Source: Ramlibacter tataouinensis
GTDB lineage: Bacteria > Pseudomonadota > Gammaproteobacteria > Burkholderiales > Burkholderiaceae_C
Assembly (NCBI GenBank): GCA_002427815.1
Contig: DIZF01000066.1
Span: 54,542-94,541 of the forward strand
DNA: 40,000 nt
Direction of reading: 5' to 3'
In this document: positions 16,357 through 21,502 of the stretch, one piece after another
How the letters are laid out: the number at the start of each line of letters is the position of its first letter
Position numbering within the stretch: position 1 is the stretch's first letter
Notes under the pieces: model-generated
What the model saw: only the letters and a program-made list of their open reading frames with translations
Database searches by the model: none
What the model was told of the DNA's origin: nothing
Translations under genes and position numbers: made by a program

Positions 16357-16965
16357 TCAAGAGGACTGAGGGAGTCCCAGGTTTCGGTCGTGCTCCCATA
16401 CAGCATGGGCGGCAGCCAACTGCGCCTTCAGATGCGCCGCCAGGCTGCGGGGCAACATGACTACGAGATCCTTGCCGCCCTTGCCGTCGCGCACTACCAG
16501 CGCAGCGCGCTCGAAATCGACATCCTTGACCCGCAGACACAAGCCCTCGGTCAGACGCATACCCGTGCCATACAGCAACTTGCCCAGCAGGGCCATCTCG
16601 CCATCCAGCGCGCCCAGCAGCGCGGCCACTTCGCTTTGAGTCAGAACGCAAGGGATCCGCCGGGCTCGTGTCGGCCGCTTCAAGTCTTCGAGCCATGGCA
16701 GGGCGACGCCCAGGACATGGCGGTACAGGGAAAGCAACGCGCTGAGCGCCTGGTTGTGGGTGGACACGGACACATTGCGCTCGGTGGCCAGCATCGTCAA
16801 AAAGGCGCGAACCTCCTGCGCACCCATTTCGCGCGGATGGCGCATCGTCCCGGATCGGCCGTGCCAGCGGATGAAGAAACGAATCCAATAGCGGTAAGCC
16901 TGCTCGGTTCGCAGGCTATAGTGCCGGTAGCGAAGCACCTCGCGAACCTGGTCCAGCAGGCGCAA
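16357..16965 (-). pseudogene. intI: Integron integrase fragment (N-terminal ~200 aa only; no ATG)
   Basis: LDQVREVLRYRHYSLRTEQAYRYWIRFFIRWHG...VSVSTHNQALSALLSLYRHVLG..LPWL...LLYGTGMRLTEGLCLRVKDVDF...VRDGKGGKD matches my recollection of IntI1 (recalled, not aligned). It stops before the IntI-specific insertion and the His-Arg-His-Tyr catalytic half. It starts at TTG directly after an in-frame TAA. Confidence 0.8.
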
Positions 16966-16996
16966 AGGCTGGGCGACATTACGTTAGAGGTTTTCC

Positions 16997-17545
16997 ATGA
17001 CCCAAGCATTGCTTCTCATCGACATTCAAAATGACTACTTCCCTGGCGGGGCTATGGAACTCGTTGGGAGTCCACTAGCTGGAGTTCAGGGCGGGAAGCT
17101 ACTCCACGCATTCAGACAGAAATCTCTCCCGATTATTCACATCCAACACATCTCTACACGCCAAGGCGTAACTTTCTTCTTGCCAAATACGGCGGGCGTA
17201 CAAATAAACGAGTGCGTAGCGCCAAAAGTGGGCGAAACAGTGTTTCAGAAGAATTTCCCAAACAGCTTTCGTGAAACACCGCTGCTTGAGCATCTACGCA
17301 AGCATGACGTTACTCAGCTCGTTATCGCAGGCATGATGACCCAAATGTGCATTGATACAACCACGCGCGCCGCTACTGACCTTGGCTTTCAGTGCCTTCT
17401 AGCTCATGATGCGTGTGCTACAAAATCCCTGTCATTTAATGGCGTTACTGTATCCGCCGAGAACGTGCAAACTGCATTTCTTGCCGCACTCAATGGCTTG
17501 TTTGCACGGGTGCTGTCTGTGGAAGAAATATGCACCAACCTCTAA
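16997..17545 (+). CDS. Isochorismatase-family cysteine hydrolase (cassette 1)
   Basis: ALLLIDIQNDYFPGG...LVIAGMMTQMCIDTTTRAA is the isochorismatase/YcaC-type pattern. The RBS (GAGG) and the stop (TAA) both lie inside attC-derived core sequences. Confidence 0.85.
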   Translation: MTQALLLIDIQNDYFPGGAMELVGSPLAGVQGGKLLHAFRQKSLPIIHIQHISTRQGVTFFLPNTAGVQINECVAPKVGETVFQKNFPNSFRETPLLEHLRKHDVTQLVIAGMMTQMCIDTTTRAATDLGFQCLLAHDACATKSLSFNGVTVSAENVQTAFLAALNGLFARVLSVEEICTNL

Positions 17546-17604
17546 CCCGGCAGTCAACACGGACGCTGCGCGATAAAGCCGCGCAGCGCCGGTTACTTCT
17601 ACGT
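17539..17604 (+). other. attC site 1 (left 66 bp; the last 5 bp, TATCC, continue at 19503-19507 after the intron)
   Basis: R'' CCTCTAAC (17539-46), 6-nt spacer, L'' GTCAAC (17553-58), imperfect palindrome, L' GTTAC (17592-96), spacer TTCTAC, R' GT|TATCC. The left arm carries extra C, A and A bases, as expected for attC extrahelical bases. Confidence 0.8.
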
Positions 17605-19502
17605 GTGTGCCGTGCATGGCACGAATCCCGCCGGGTGCAAGTCCCGGTACCAAGTATCAGCAGAGCCGGAGGTTAGCCAAAGGGCAAGTGCGTCGTCGCG
17701 AGGGGGGGTGCGGAGGAAGCTCAAGGCGAAATCGCGGGGCGATGAACAAAAACCGGATATGAGGCGTGATGCATTCGGGGCGAGCGGGCACGTGACCGCC
17801 AAGCCCTCCATCTGCAACAGCGGCGGCGACGCCGTGGTGGATGCATTTTGTAAATCCGGCGCCTATGCGAGGAAGGATTCGTGTCTTACCACGGGAGATC
17901 TGCCCGGTGTCACTGCGGCGAGAGAAGCGGCGACTGAAGGTTGGGAAACCGGCTTTGACCGCTGGGCAGAAGTCAGCAAAGGGCGTACGAGGCCGGGGGC
18001 TCCCGGCCAAAGGCCCGAACGTAGCGAGAGCTGGGCACTGACATGAAGGGCGGCGGGACTGCACCAGACCTGCGAGGCGGGCCACACGGCTCGCTCTCGG
18101 CCGAGGCAGCGATGCCCCGGAGTGAACCCGGGGCCAATGACGGTCAGACAGCCCAGTCGATGCATGGCGAGTTGCTCGCGCGCGTTCTCAAACGCGCCAA
18201 CCTGCAACGCGCCCTCAAGCAAGTGCGCCATAACAAAGGCGCGCCGGGCGTCGACGGCATGAGCGTCGATGAACTACCCCAGTATCTGAAGCACCATTGG
18301 CTGGAGCTTCGCGCGCAACTGGAGGCGGGCAGCTACTGCCCGCAGCCGGTACGCCGCGTGGAAATCGACAAGGACGATGGCCGCAAGCGGATGCTGGGAA
18401 TTCCCACCGTGCTGGACAGATTTCTCCAGCAGGCCATTGCGCAGATCGTGAGTGCGCAGTGGGAGCCACACTTCCACCACCACAGCTACGGCTTTCGGCC
18501 CAAGCGCTCGGCCCACCAGGCCGTGCGCGAACTGCAGGCCCAAGTCCAGGCTGGGCGCAACTGGGTGGTTGATCTTGATCTGGAATCTTTCTTCGATCGA
18601 GTCAACCACGACCGGCTTGTGCACCGGCTTGCAACGCATGTGCCCGACGCGGCACTGCTCAAGCTGATACGCCGCTTCCTGAAAGCCGGTGCGTGGGTGG
18701 ACGGGCACGTGCAAGCCAGCGCCCGGGGCGTTCCGCAAGGCGGTCCCCTATCACCGGTGCTGGCGAACGTCCTGCTCGACGAGATGGACTGGGAATTGCA
18801 CCGGCGTGGCCACCGCTTTGCGAGGTATGCCGACGACTGCAATATTGCAGTGGCCAGTGAGCGTGCCGGCAAGCGGGTGATGGCTAGCGTAACGCGCTGG
18901 ATCGAAGAGTCACTGCGGCTCACAGTGAATTCACGCAAAAGCGCTGTGGACAGGCCCTGGAACCGCAAGTTCCTGGGCTTCACGCTCACTCGCCGGGACA
19001 AGAGACTGAAGGTGGCCGAACAGGCCATCGACAAACTCAAGGACCGCGTGCGCGAGTTGAGCCGTCGTACACGAGGCCACCGCTTGGACGCGATCGTGGC
19101 AGAGCTGAGGACTACCCTGCTTGGTTGGAAAGCGTACTTCGGCATCGCCGAGGTGTTGAGCCCTCTGCGCGACGTGGACAAGTGGATACGACGACGGTTA
19201 CGATGCTATCAATGGAAGCAGTGGGGACCCAGGGGCTACCGGGAATTGCGCAAACGAGGGGTGAGCGTGCGAGAAGCATGGAACACCAGCAAGAGCGCGC
19301 ACGGTCCCTGGCGCCTAGCCCGAACCCCCGCGCTGACGCTGGCGTTGCCGGCGAAATACTTCAGCCGTTTGGGACTGCCGCAACTGGCCCCTTACCAGGC
19401 CTGACTGGCAGTATGTATTCAACGCAACGAACCGCCGTGTACGTGACCCGTACGCACGGTGGTGTGGGAGGGAGGGGCCGTGAGGCTTCTTCCTATCCCG
19501 AT
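17605..19502 (+). mobile_element. Group II intron, bacterial class C-like, ORF-containing, apparently intact
   Basis: The 5' end is GTGTGCC. Domain V is 19432-19462 (CGC triad, 2-nt AC bulge). Domain VI is 19466-19499 with a bulged A at 19495, 7 nt before the 3' end ...CCCGAT. The RT/maturase ORF sits in domain IV. Length 1898 bp. Confidence 0.85.
18160..19404 (+). CDS. Group II intron reverse transcriptase/maturase (no endonuclease domain)
   Basis: NKGAPGVDG, RMLGIPTVLDRFLQQA, SYGFRPKRSAHQA, the YADD catalytic box (FARYADDCNI) and the maturase X domain (LLGWKAYFG) are present. There is no HNH tail. The ORF is open from 18043; ATG 18160 best fits typical N-termini. Confidence 0.9.
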   Translation: MHGELLARVLKRANLQRALKQVRHNKGAPGVDGMSVDELPQYLKHHWLELRAQLEAGSYCPQPVRRVEIDKDDGRKRMLGIPTVLDRFLQQAIAQIVSAQWEPHFHHHSYGFRPKRSAHQAVRELQAQVQAGRNWVVDLDLESFFDRVNHDRLVHRLATHVPDAALLKLIRRFLKAGAWVDGHVQASARGVPQGGPLSPVLANVLLDEMDWELHRRGHRFARYADDCNIAVASERAGKRVMASVTRWIEESLRLTVNSRKSAVDRPWNRKFLGFTLTRRDKRLKVAEQAIDKLKDRVRELSRRTRGHRLDAIVAELRTTLLGWKAYFGIAEVLSPLRDVDKWIRRRLRCYQWKQWGPRGYRELRKRGVSVREAWNTSKSAHGPWRLARTPALTLALPAKYFSRLGLPQLAPYQA

Positions 19503-19531
19503 TATCCGTCGAGTGGTGTCGACGTAGCGCC

Positions 19532-19828
19532 TCAGCGATCTTTCCAATATCCTGGGCGCCTACGGTGATGCGCAATAGCAAAGACGGTCACATTCCGGTC
19601 GACGACCTCATACATCACCGTGTACGGGAAATGCTTGCAGTGGTAGTGCCTGGTGCCATCCCCGTCTGCGGGCCAGTCTCTCGCCGTTTCGCTCAAACCA
19701 TCGATGGCATCGAACAGCTCGACCCGAAACGCATCGGCGGCAATTGGGCTTCGGTCGAAATACCAGAGGAATGCCTCGCGCGCCTCTGCCTCCGCTTCGG
19801 GCAGTACTTCAACGTCGAAGGAACTCAC
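19532..19828 (-). CDS. RelE/ParE-family type II toxin (cassette 2)
   Basis: 98 aa, with ...EAREAFLWY...HYHCKHFPYTVMYEVVDRNVTVFAIAHHRRRPGYW, the ParE/RelE fold pattern. There is a 4-nt overlap with the upstream antitoxin. Confidence 0.8.
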   Translation of the reverse strand: MSSFDVEVLPEAEAEAREAFLWYFDRSPIAADAFRVELFDAIDGLSETARDWPADGDGTRHYHCKHFPYTVMYEVVDRNVTVFAIAHHRRRPGYWKDR

Positions 19829-20049
19829 AGGGAGCTAAGGCGCTGGCGAACTTCAGCCCAGGGAGCGGCTTGCACTCGCCCGGCACGCAACTCCGCGCGG
19901 CGTCGGTTTACCTCGGCGCGCCACAGCTCAGAGACCGTCGCCTCGTCGGCCGTTTCGAGGCTGTCGAGGAGAGCAACCGCCAAGGCTGAGCGCTCCTCGA
20001 CCGGAAGGCCGAGGACCTCGTCCAGAAGGTGGTCTACACGCGCATTCAT
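19825..20049 (-). CDS. Addiction-module antitoxin (PF09720-like component)
   Basis: MNARVDHLLDEVLGLPVEERSALAVALLDSLE...ELWRAEVNRRRAEL. The longer ORF to 20112 would start inside attC2, so the ATG at 20049 is preferred. Confidence 0.7.
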   Translation of the reverse strand: MNARVDHLLDEVLGLPVEERSALAVALLDSLETADEATVSELWRAEVNRRRAELRAGRVQAAPWAEVRQRLSSL

Positions 20050-20093
20050 GGGGTTCAGTCTAGCACCGCGGGTGTCGTGCGGGAAGGGCTCGA

Positions 20094-20183
20094 CGGATAA
20101 CATATCAGTCAACGCGGACGCCCAATGGCGTCCCGCCGCTGCGCGGCGTCCTCTTGGGCGCCGGTTACTTTCATTCGTTATCC
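20094..20183 (+). other. attC site 2
   Basis: R'' CGGATAAC (20094-20101), spacer ATATCA, L'' GTCAAC (20108-13), imperfect palindrome, L' GTTAC (20164-68), spacer TTTCATTC, R' GTTATCC (20177-83). Confidence 0.8.
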
Positions 20184-20205
20184 CTGGACCGGGGAGCCTC
20201 GCGAC

Positions 20206-20234
20206 TTGACATATAGTACGTTTAAACGTACGAT
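20206..20234 (+). promoter_or_regulatory. Cassette-internal promoter with palindromic operator for yefM-yoeB
   Basis: TTGACA (20206-11), 17-nt spacer, TACGAT (20229-34). The perfect 16-bp palindrome GTACGTTTAAACGTAC (20217-32) overlaps the spacer and the -10 element. Confidence 0.6.
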
Positions 20235-20258
20235 TGGCGCCATTTCGAGAGAATCATC

Positions 20259-20504
20259 ATGGCTATTCCCATTACAGCAAGTGCGGCGCGCGCCAGCCTG
20301 TACCGCTTGATCGACGAGGCCAGTCAGTCCCATCGTCCAGTGCTGATCGCAGGCAAGCGCGCTAGCGCCGTGCTCCTGTCGGCCGAGGATTGGGAGGCGA
20401 TCCAAGAGACGCTGTATCTTCTTTCTGTTCCGGGCATGCGCGAATCTATCAAGAAGGGCATGGCTGAGCCGTTGGACAAGAGCGCCAGAGAAGTCAAGTG
20501 GTGA
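20259..20504 (+). CDS. yefM: Phd/YefM-family antitoxin (cassette 3)
   Basis: MAIPITASAARASLYRLIDEA..SHRPVLIAGKR.SAVLLSAEDWEAIQETLYLLS.PG is the YefM pattern. Confidence 0.9.
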   Translation: MAIPITASAARASLYRLIDEASQSHRPVLIAGKRASAVLLSAEDWEAIQETLYLLSVPGMRESIKKGMAEPLDKSAREVKW

Positions 20505-20764
20505 AGTGGCAGGTCGTCTTCGCGAAACACGCACTCAAGGACGCCAAGAAGCTCAAAGCGGCGGGACTGAAGGAGAAGGCTCAGGAATTGCTGCAAGTGC
20601 TGGCCACTGATCCGTTCCAGAATCCACCGGCGTACGAAAAATTGGTTGGCGATCTTGAGGGCACGTATTCGCGGCGCATCAACATCCAGCATCGCCTGGT
20701 CTACGAAGTGTTCAAGAAAGAGCGCATCGTACGGGTCCTTCGTATGTGGACGCACTACGAATGA
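20498..20764 (+). CDS. yoeB: Txe/YoeB-family toxin
   Basis: The GTG start overlaps the yefM stop. ...LQVLATDPFQNPPAYEKLVGDLEGTYSRRINIQHRLVYEV...VRVLRMWTHYE is the YoeB signature. Confidence 0.9.
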   Translation: MVKWQVVFAKHALKDAKKLKAAGLKEKAQELLQVLATDPFQNPPAYEKLVGDLEGTYSRRINIQHRLVYEVFKKERIVRVLRMWTHYE

Positions 20765-20770
20765 ACTCGA

Positions 20771-20861
20771 GGGATAACATGCCCGTCAACGCGAACGCCC
20801 ACGGGCGTCCGCGCGTTGCGCGCGCATCTTTCCCTGGTCGCCGGTTACGTTTACGTTATAG
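20771..20861 (+). other. attC site 3
   Basis: R'' GGGATAAC (20771-78), spacer ATGCCC, L'' GTCAAC (20785-90), L' GTTAC (20844-48), spacer GTTTAC, R' GTTATAG (20855-61). Confidence 0.8.
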
Positions 20862-20875
20862 GGCGGGCCAAGCGC

Positions 20876-20903
20876 TTGACGTACATACATAGTGTATATA
20901 CAC
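20876..20903 (+). promoter_or_regulatory. Possible cassette-internal promoter/operator for brnT-brnA
   Basis: TTGACG at 20876-81. The perfect 12-bp palindrome GTGTATATACAC at 20892-20903 contains TATACA. The spacing is suboptimal (about 15 nt). Confidence 0.35.
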
Positions 20904-20910
20904 CAGGCGC

Positions 20911-21186
20911 ATGGAGTTCACGTGGTCGGAAGCGAAGCGGACCGCCAATCTCAAGGCACACGGGCTCGACTTCGTCGATGCGGCGTTTGTATTTGAGGGT
21001 GTGACGTTCACCTTCGAAGACGATCGGTTTTCCTGCGGTGAGCAGCGCTTCGTCACGCCTGGGCTGCTTGCTGGCATTCCCGTCTCAGTAGTTCATACGG
21101 AGAGTGAAAATGAAATCCGCATCATCTCGTTCCGCAAAGCCACAAACCGCGAAGCGCAAATCTACTGCAATGAAATCCAGGACTGA
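20911..21186 (+). CDS. brnT: BrnT-family (DUF497) toxin (cassette 4)
   Basis: MEFTWSEAKRTANLKAHGLDFVDAAFVFEG..FTFEDDRFSCGEQRF...IRIISFRKATNRE is the BrnT pattern. Confidence 0.85.
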   Translation: MEFTWSEAKRTANLKAHGLDFVDAAFVFEGVTFTFEDDRFSCGEQRFVTPGLLAGIPVSVVHTESENEIRIISFRKATNREAQIYCNEIQD

Positions 21187-21424
21187 CTGGGCTCGCCTCA
21201 AGGCAACTGGTAGCGCTGCCGCACCAACCGAAGAGCATCCGGAAGCCAGCGTTGCCCATATCGTGCGTGGAGTCGTTCGACGTGGGCTACAGCCTCTTCC
21301 GTCCAAAGCGTCCATCTCGCTGCGGGTAGACCAAGACGTTCTGGAGTGGTTCAAGGCGCAAGGCCCCGGCTATCAAACCCGCATCAACACCGTGCTACGG
21401 GCATTTCGTGACGCATCGGTATAA
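21170..21424 (+). CDS. brnA: BrnA-family antitoxin
   Basis: MKSRTDWARLKA...ISLRVDQDVLEWFKAQGPGYQTRINTVLRAF. It overlaps the brnT 3' end. The TAA stop lies in the R'' box of attC4. Confidence 0.8.
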   Translation: MKSRTDWARLKATGSAAAPTEEHPEASVAHIVRGVVRRGLQPLPSKASISLRVDQDVLEWFKAQGPGYQTRINTVLRAFRDASV

Positions 21425-21502
21425 CTGGTCGACACGGACACGAAGCAGAGGGCTGCCGCTTCGCGGCGTGTGCTGCGTGCCGGTCAGTTCCAACGGTCAG
21501 AG
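21418..21502 (+). other. attC site 4, degenerate
   Basis: R'' GGTATAAC (21418-25), but only a 2-nt spacer before GTCGACACGGAC. On the right side the boxes read GGTCAG (21482-87) and GGTCAGAG (21495-21502), so the GTT core has become GTC. Confidence 0.5.

Follow-up and report, generated by a model that had tools for sequence, protein, structure and literature searches.

Which strand of an integron recombination site can a group II intron enter, and what in the intron decides it? The question is raised by a 40,000-nucleotide stretch from Ramlibacter tataouinensis (assembly GCA_002427815.1, contig DIZF01000066.1, positions 54,542 to 94,541, forward strand; the whole stretch is called the window below), in which the first cassette attachment site of a small integron array, attC1, is occupied by a class C group II (IIC) intron. 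Descriptions of integron group II introns usually present them as antisense, bottom-strand insertions. The canonical IIC-attC introns target the R'' box on the bottom strand at TTGT/T (a slash marks the insertion or cutting point throughout) and lie antisense to the cassettes (PMC3001079, PMC7923331). A first-pass annotation of the window had given this pattern for S.ma.I2-type introns and suggested that orientation and target are unusual here. The pattern it gave agrees with these papers and with five canonical introns that we compared, and the window copy does differ from them; it is not unique, however, as its orientation is the rule in its own clade and precedents have been published. Our reading, which we hold with high confidence, is that the intron is a full-length and apparently functional IIC retroelement of a clade distinct from IIC-attC, targeting the top-strand attC hairpin together with (N)CGU/U at R'.

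The intron occupies 17605-19502 of the window on the plus strand and is a full-length class C element of 1898 nt. The parts of the occupied site and its unoccupied sisters are as follows.

17539..17604, plus strand: 5' portion of attC1, forming the 5' exon hairpin (sequence read and DNA fold)
17539-46, plus strand: R'' of attC1, CCTCTAAC (sequence)
17553-58, plus strand: L'' of attC1, GTCAAC (sequence), with a GC-rich palindrome between L'' and L'
17591-96, plus strand: L' of attC1, GGTTAC, followed by the spacer TTCTAC and then GT of R'
17601-17604, plus strand: intron-binding site 1 (IBS1), (A)CGT, the end of the 5' exon
17605..19502, plus strand: class C group II intron, 5' GUGUG...GAU 3' (Rfam, nhmmer end models, full-length DNA similarity to plasmid introns)
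19503..19508, plus strand: remainder of R', TATCCG, which is the 3' exon and the start of cassette 2; IBS3 is T19503; complementary to R'' CGGATAAC at 20094-20101
20094..20183, plus strand: attC2, unoccupied sister site, ...CATTCGT/TATCC
20771..20862, plus strand: attC3, unoccupied sister site, TTTACGT/TATAGG, with a potential insertion point between 20856 and 20857

The occupied site reads ...GGTTAC (17591-96), TTCTAC, GT (17603-04), then the intron GTGTGCC...CCCGAT (17605-19502), then TATCCG (19503-08). The R' core is cut as GT/TATCC on the top strand, in the cassette direction and one base off the integrase crossover G/TT. The empty attC2 reads GGTTAC-TTTCATTC-GTTATCC (R' at 20177-83) and the empty attC3 reads GGTTAC-GTTTAC-GTTATAGG (R' at 20855-62), the latter with the same IBS1 and IBS3 as the occupied site. 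Excision of the intron in silico yields GTTATCCG, the complement of the cassette 2 R'' CGGATAAC (20094-20101), a match that is expected because the last six bases of R' in arrays belong to the next cassette. End models built with nhmmer for both sides likewise put the boundaries at 17605 and 19502. Alternative 5' ends within the GTGTGTG run (17603 or 17607) were rejected, as they do not restore GTT, break the EBS1 pairing described below and conflict with the aligned 5' ends of the relatives. The site itself shows the R''/L''/L'/R' layout, the cassette-boundary logic and two homologous sister sites of an attC, and its top strand folds as DNA into an 18-bp hairpin in which all three bulged bases are on the 5' arm and the stem stops 7 nt upstream of the insertion point. 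The identity and placement of the intron are far beyond chance, and a re-reading of the occupied and sister sites bore out all the sequence statements of the first-pass annotation, including both ends, the top-strand sense orientation and the GT/T split.

The ribozyme and its protein are equally complete, and comprise the following parts.

17790..17793, plus strand: exon-binding site 1 (EBS1), ACG + U, in the domain I loop GCACGUGA; pairs with IBS1 (A)CGU
17853, plus strand: EBS3, the A in GUAAAU; pairs with IBS3 U19503
18160..19404, plus strand: intron-encoded protein (IEP), reverse transcriptase (RT) domains and maturase domain X (Pfam, exact-protein look-up)
19432..19462, plus strand: domain V, with a CGC triad at 19433-35 and a 2-nt 3' bulge at 19453-54 (RF00029 alignment and sequence)
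19466..19499, plus strand: domain VI, with a bulged branch-point A at 19495, 7 nt from the 3' end (RF00029 alignment and sequence)

Rfam group-II-D1D4-3 was matched at 17692-17884 on the plus strand (111.5 bits, full model), group-II-D1D4-1 at 17935-18015 (plus) and the domain V/VI model RF00029 at 19430-19502 (plus), which ends exactly at the proposed 3' end. RF02001, RF01998 and RF00029 were each matched over the full model, and the ends, 5' GUGUG and 3' GAU, fit the GUGYG and AY expected of a class C ribozyme. The IEP is annotated with 414 aa in the metagenome contig mentioned below, and the longest open reading frame (ORF), starting from 18043, would give 453 aa. Pfam detects a complete RVT_1 (1-205 of 205) and GIIM and nothing else, which is the class C constitution of RT and X with no endonuclease domain. 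The first-pass annotation had read the class, the missing endonuclease and the details of domains V and VI in the same way. The IEP clusters with Kl.pn.I3, called group IIc in PMC5027574, and with terminator-inserting relatives, in a tree that holds no reference sequences of other group II classes.

The target is recognised by short pairings. EBS1 and EBS3 were located by domain I alignment and covariation over 88 distinct related introns. Against the exon ends CTACGT / T, for which the first-pass annotation had proposed a search, EBS1 ACG (17790-92) pairs with the CGT of the 5' exon, U17793 pairs with A17601, and A17853 serves as EBS3. The three EBS1-IBS1 bases are fully paired in 80 of the 88 introns, compared with a mean of 18 and a maximum of 29 in 1000 shuffles, and the covariation spans at least 17 different pair types. 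In the EBS3 column (GUA[A/G]AU), A goes with a 3' exon T and G with a 3' exon C, paired in 68 of 72 introns. The EBS1 loop is fixed in the clade of the window intron as GC-ACG-UGA, and the EBS1 of other introns complements their own 5' exon ends (CAA/TTG, AAC/GTT, ATA/TAT, CAT/ATG and others, given as EBS1/exon). The match of EBS and IBS thus defines both ends without recourse to the sister sites and places the intron in its cognate site. The target has the class C form, with a hairpin 7 nt upstream, an EBS1 of 3-4 nt and an EBS3 of 1 nt.

The orientation depends on which strand is the attC top strand, and here three further features of the array are needed.

16357..16965, minus strand: truncated integron integrase remnant, 202 aa (Pfam and sequence)
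16983..16990, plus strand: attI-side crossover GTTAGAGG, the start of cassette 1; complementary to the cassette 1 R'' CCTCTAAC at 17539-46
16997..17545, plus strand: cassette 1 gene, isochorismatase family, 182 aa, with its stop codon inside the attC1 R''

Four independent lines make the plus strand the attC top strand. Upstream, in divergent arrangement, are the integrase remnant and attI; the cassette 1 gene extends into R''; the start of the cassette is complementary to its own R'' for cassettes 1, 2, 3 and 4; and the plus-strand fold leaves C, A and A unpaired, all on the R''-L'' arm, which correspond to G, T and T of the bottom strand, the canonical extrahelical bases.

The same arrangement was found in relatives of the window intron. 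A genome scan with one genome per species gave 80 loci, and the end models placed junctions in more than 60 of them; the closest relative obtained (L003) shares 76% IEP identity. In all close relatives (IEP identity 53-76%) the 5' exon ends with CGT and the 3' exon starts with TA or TG, attC-like palindromes precede most of them, and EBS1 is invariant over the whole span. The attC sites at two of the loci (L006 and L178) belong to the family seen in the window. Wherever a clade locus has a 5' flank (12 of 12), the largest ORF upstream shares the strand of the intron and stops 22-117 nt short of it. EBS1 ACG is present in 27 introns, 26 of which follow CGT and one TGT, and T follows every one with a readable 3' junction. 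Most of these 27 are in attC-like sites, sense wherever the flank is readable, and most follow an R''...AAC / GTT...R' architecture with bulges on the 5' arm. A metagenome scan with a 14-mer across the EBS1 loop returned 120 stretches, most of them chance matches and only 15 of them introns. Of the introns in this sample, 13 combine EBS1 ACG with an intact 5' end; 12 of these lie after CGT and one after TGT (a G-U wobble), and TA follows all of those with a readable 3' junction.

The second-closest relative, L004 (568-4430; 71% IEP identity), is 3863 nt long; about 2 kb of additional sequence with several ORFs, perhaps a nested element, separates its domain I from the IEP.

Among plasmid introns, full-length alignment with the window intron was obtained only for the pR148 type, found on eight plasmids including S. 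algae NZ_CP033574, and the pPp47 type, with 65-68% DNA identity over the full length and 62-63% IEP identity. Both lie in class 1 integrons, on the cassette strand and exactly at GT/T of R'; the junction of the pR148 type in the aadA1 attC is ...CAAGCGT/TAGATGC and that of pPp47 in the aacA4 attC is ...CAAACGT/TAGATGC. An intron of the pR148 type is also present on an Enterobacter asburiae plasmid. The window intron shares with them the core clade (97% bootstrap), identical EBS1 and EBS3, the insertion point, the top strand and the sense orientation, and thus has the features of a top-strand attC-targeting group as they do. It differs in its setting, an environmental, chromosomal-type toxin-antitoxin array with a truncated integrase, whereas the plasmid introns sit in mobile class 1 integrons on IncC and related plasmids with the resistance cassettes aadA1 and aacA4. 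It also carries a 20-25 nt insertion in domain I that is common to L005-L007 and L009.

The plasmid introns L083-L087 were considered as further integron introns and set aside, since in context they proved to be ordinary IIC introns that follow terminators. A different class C intron, found as L083 on C. freundii p48846_1 and on V. parahaemolyticus plasmids, occupies an IncC-type transfer region, flanked by dsbC/traC and a gene for an Ig-like protein; some of the plasmids carry a pR148-type integron intron as well.

How far, then, does the window intron stand from the canonical lineage? The canonical set consisted of five introns, namely Kl.pn.I3 (named in PMC5027574) from an IncN blaIMP-4 plasmid and four more, all of which are antisense to the cassettes, start with GUACG and have the EBS1 loop GGC-ACA-AGAC; their junctions read ...TTGT/TAGA..., and the 3' exon is the reverse complement of the end of the cassette gene. 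With IIC-attC introns (S.ma.I2, E.c.I7, Kl.pn.I1, Kl.pn.I3) the window intron shares the class C ribozyme, the endonuclease-less RT/maturase, the attC target, the insertion after a DNA hairpin at GT/T of a GTTRRRY-like box, the EBS1 of 3-4 nt and the 1-nt EBS3, and even the EBS1 loops are very similar (GGCACAAGAC versus GGCACGUGAC). Of the four features that define IIC-attC introns, however, it has only the insertion in attC, although its mode of action closely parallels theirs. It enters the top strand at R' and not the bottom strand at R'', with TACGT/T in place of TTGT/T (IBS1 (N)CGU versus UUGU, 5' end GUGUG versus GUACG); it is sense and not antisense to the cassettes, on the strand of cassette 1 and divergent from the integrase remnant; and its IEP, 41-43% identical to the canonical ones, falls outside their clade. 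A neighbour-joining tree of 95 IEPs (100 bootstraps) unites the five canonical IEPs with 100% support, to the exclusion of the window IEP, and gives 97% to a core clade of 14 that includes the window and the plasmid introns; the top-strand clade and the canonical introns formed an exclusive group in 0 of 100 replicates. The phylogenetic check proposed by the first-pass annotation thus separated the intron from the canonical IIC-attC clade, within a tree of related IEPs.

The two kinds of intron meet in the aadA1 attC, which is struck by both: the top strand reads ...GTCTA/ACAATTCG...CAAGCGT/TAGATGC, where the first mark is the canonical bottom-strand site (GAATTGT/TAGACA) and the second the top-strand site of the pR148 type. 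The base before GTT at the R box is T on the bottom strand and C on the top strand, and this difference is read by an EBS1 of ACA or ACG. A metagenome locus, L201 (1-4352), combines the two kinds in one array, where successive attC sites hold a canonical intron and a clade member on opposite strands, the former with EBS1 ACA, its 5' end at +1735, antisense and at R'', the latter with EBS1 ACG, its 5' end at 2940, sense and at R'. The orientations differ in their consequences for expression. Antisense integron introns block transcription from the cassette promoter Pc and supply their own outward promoter (PMC3001079), whereas a sense intron could in principle be spliced from the array transcript.

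Taken with the established biology of IIC introns, these data suggest how the window copy may have arisen and may behave. On our reading, members of the clade recognise the hairpin of the attC top strand, read (N)CGU/U at R' through an EBS1 ACG[U] of 3-4 nt and a 1-nt EBS3 A, and insert at GT/TRRRY in the orientation of the cassette genes. The window intron has on this reading retrohomed into attC1, in a small array of chromosomal cassettes that now has only a truncated integrase. It would be transcribed together with cassette 1, and splicing would restore ...CUACGU-UAUCCG... in the RNA. The ribonucleoprotein would then reverse-splice into single-stranded top-strand attC hairpins, with cDNA synthesis presumably primed by replication because the IEP has no endonuclease.

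Several observations weigh against this reading, and they are given here with the alternatives that they favour. The support of the wider EBS1-ACG group, with 22 members, is only 61%, deeper relationships are unresolved in the tree, and the tree was made by neighbour-joining only. As to mobility, the intron may be an immobile relic, intact in sequence, that no longer splices or moves and has been fixed in a decaying integron. By exact-protein look-up the window sequence was placed within a contig of a Joint Genome Institute (JGI) metagenome, Ga0120161_1000109. The source contig has a single copy of the intron, attC1 is occupied in the same way in several metagenome samples, and no empty attC1 allele was recovered with the IEP, the ParE toxin or the isochorismatase as look-up protein, every contig with the flanking genes also carrying the intron. 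Moreover, attC3 is empty despite having the same TACGT/T, and the integrase is truncated. Against this stand the uninterrupted ORF with complete RT and X, the Rfam models matched end to end with no truncation, and EBS1 and EBS3 that still match the flanks. We regard the intron as apparently functional and rate a relic as unlikely, though the most serious of the alternatives.

A second alternative is a generic terminator-targeting IIC intron, in which EBS1 is ACG by chance and the attC hairpin merely mimics a terminator with no specialisation for integrons. Ordinary terminator-inserted class C introns resemble the window intron in being sense downstream of a gene, with a hairpin a few nucleotides upstream, a short EBS1 and no IBS2 (EBS2 not having been searched for in the window intron), and this is what was observed in the distant relatives (50-58% IEP identity), which lie after a GC hairpin and a T-run with EBS1 matching. 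A metagenome intron with EBS1 ACG (L117, minus strand, 5' end 11128) follows a terminator-like hairpin ending TTTTTTCGT, and the 5' exons of three clade members (L011, L012, L024) are not convincingly attC-like. The L117 site suggests that the clade can also use non-attC hairpins, and the hairpin requirement may therefore be generic and not attC-specific; IIC-attC introns likewise keep terminator targeting (PMC7923331). The window intron differs from the terminator type in its attC hairpin target and in an IBS1 of CGU in place of a U-run. Furthermore, CGT/T is the conserved R' junction (C-GTT) in attC sites, present in the three of the window and in those of aadA1 and aacA4; most EBS1-ACG introns follow R''...AAC / GTT...R' structures with 5'-arm bulges; and EBS1 does not vary over a clade with 53-76% IEP identity. 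On this evidence we consider a generic intron improbable.

The third alternative, that a canonical S.ma.I2-type intron made a one-off ectopic insertion into the wrong strand of attC, would draw on the imperfect palindrome of attC, which therefore offers a hairpin and then GT/T on both strands, and on the 'different invasion process' proposed for a sense intron (PMC9229058, 2022), yet it is hardly credible for an IEP only 41-43% identical to the five canonical ones and outside their 100% clade, with an EBS1 of ACG instead of ACA that matches its own 5' exon, and with the same junction in 26 other EBS1-ACG introns.

The targeting of the top-strand attC by a distinct clade accordingly has to be set beside what has been published. 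A top-strand, sense IIC intron of E. cloacae was published in 2012 (J Bacteriol), as cited in PMC7923331, and, as a mere guess, it may be the pR148-type intron; a literature search on intron names such as E.cl.I1 gave no match. For the intron of S. algae KC-Na-R1, whose plasmid NZ_CP033574 is among those with the pR148 type, and which is described as 'in the same orientation', 'a different invasion process' was speculated (PMC9229058, 2022). In the literature searched, sense insertions appear only as isolated exceptions. The first-pass annotation had foreseen that a literature in which top-strand R' insertion is the described norm would remove the novelty and leave the annotation standing; the precedents reduce the novelty, and the annotation is kept. 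The window intron is a new environmental member of a small and under-described clade with at least one published precedent, and is not unique.

A broader proposal, to which we give slightly less than an even chance, is that the clade represents a widespread, as yet unnamed IIC specificity class that mirrors IIC-attC. Such a class would use the top strand at R' (NCGU/U) where IIC-attC uses the bottom strand at R'' (UUGU/U), the choice of strand being set essentially by one EBS1 nucleotide (ACG versus ACA) that reads the unpaired base beside the R box. Being sense, its members could be spliced with cassette expression continuous, and both clinical class 1 integrons and the chromosomal integrons of several phyla would harbour it. 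As they stand, the window intron and its relatives show a second solution for integron introns, that of a distinct class C clade which reads the opposite strand of one and the same recombination site and inserts in the sense direction. One attC, such as that of aadA1, is thus open to two lineages at mirror-image positions, with the difference traceable to the EBS1 triplet, which amounts to a testable rule for strand choice and offers an explanation for the sense introns left unexplained in recent integron surveys. There is also a practical point for integron annotation, as attC finders will miss R' because it is split by about 1.9 kb.

Two further groups of introns were noted in the scans. L029 (13-4411) and L034 (around 4331) are tandem or nested copies, in which the 3' end ...CTATGCCGAT directly abuts the 5' end GTGTGCCGAGC / GGTACGCC, and in these tandem cases none of the three EBS1 bases is paired. 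A class C subgroup with EBS1 AAC and EBS3 G (L052, L058-L060, L065, L068, L069, L072, L077, L081 and L082) always follows a short CCGC...GCGG hairpin and then (T)TCGTT/C, and its target looks like a repeated extragenic motif and not a terminator or attC.

The integron of the window is a decayed one. The integrase remnant has Phage_int_SAM_4 at 3-89 and Phage_integrase over only profile positions 2-86 of 172, that is, the N-terminal SAM-like domain and the first half only of the catalytic domain, with the C-terminus truncated and a Band_7/SPFH gene about 100 bp downstream. The identical 202-aa gene is called in independent metagenome contigs. A complete IntI beside attI, as in a functional integron, is not present here. 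The N-terminus of the remnant is only about 20 nt from the attI crossover, and the attI junction TACGT/TAGAGG has the IBS1 and IBS3 of the intron with no attC hairpin upstream. The first-pass annotation had also stated that the insertion disrupts the crossover of the first attC. The R' is indeed split beside the crossover, and attC1 could not take part in recombination with attI or with attC2; the disruption has no consequence in cis because the adjacent integrase is truncated, which for the same reason keeps the biological consequence at this locus small. The window has too weak a GC skew for the direction of replication to be assigned, and the idea that top-strand targeting makes use of the lagging-strand template is a conjecture.

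Beyond the intron, cassettes 2-4 (window 19532-21420) are all type II toxin-antitoxin pairs, with ParE and an Unstab_antitox antitoxin, reversed, in cassette 2, Phd/YoeB in cassette 3 and BrnT/BrnA in cassette 4. A GNAT acetyltransferase gene comes directly after the site that follows cassette 4 (window 21422-21500). The R'' of this site, TATAAC, is a proper one and matches the cassette-initial GTTATA; on the 3' side, GGTCAGTTCCAACGGTCAGAGC, a GTT core is not evident, and the site may be a degenerate terminal attC that closes the array. The GC content of the array is 0.61, against 0.68-0.70 in the flanks.

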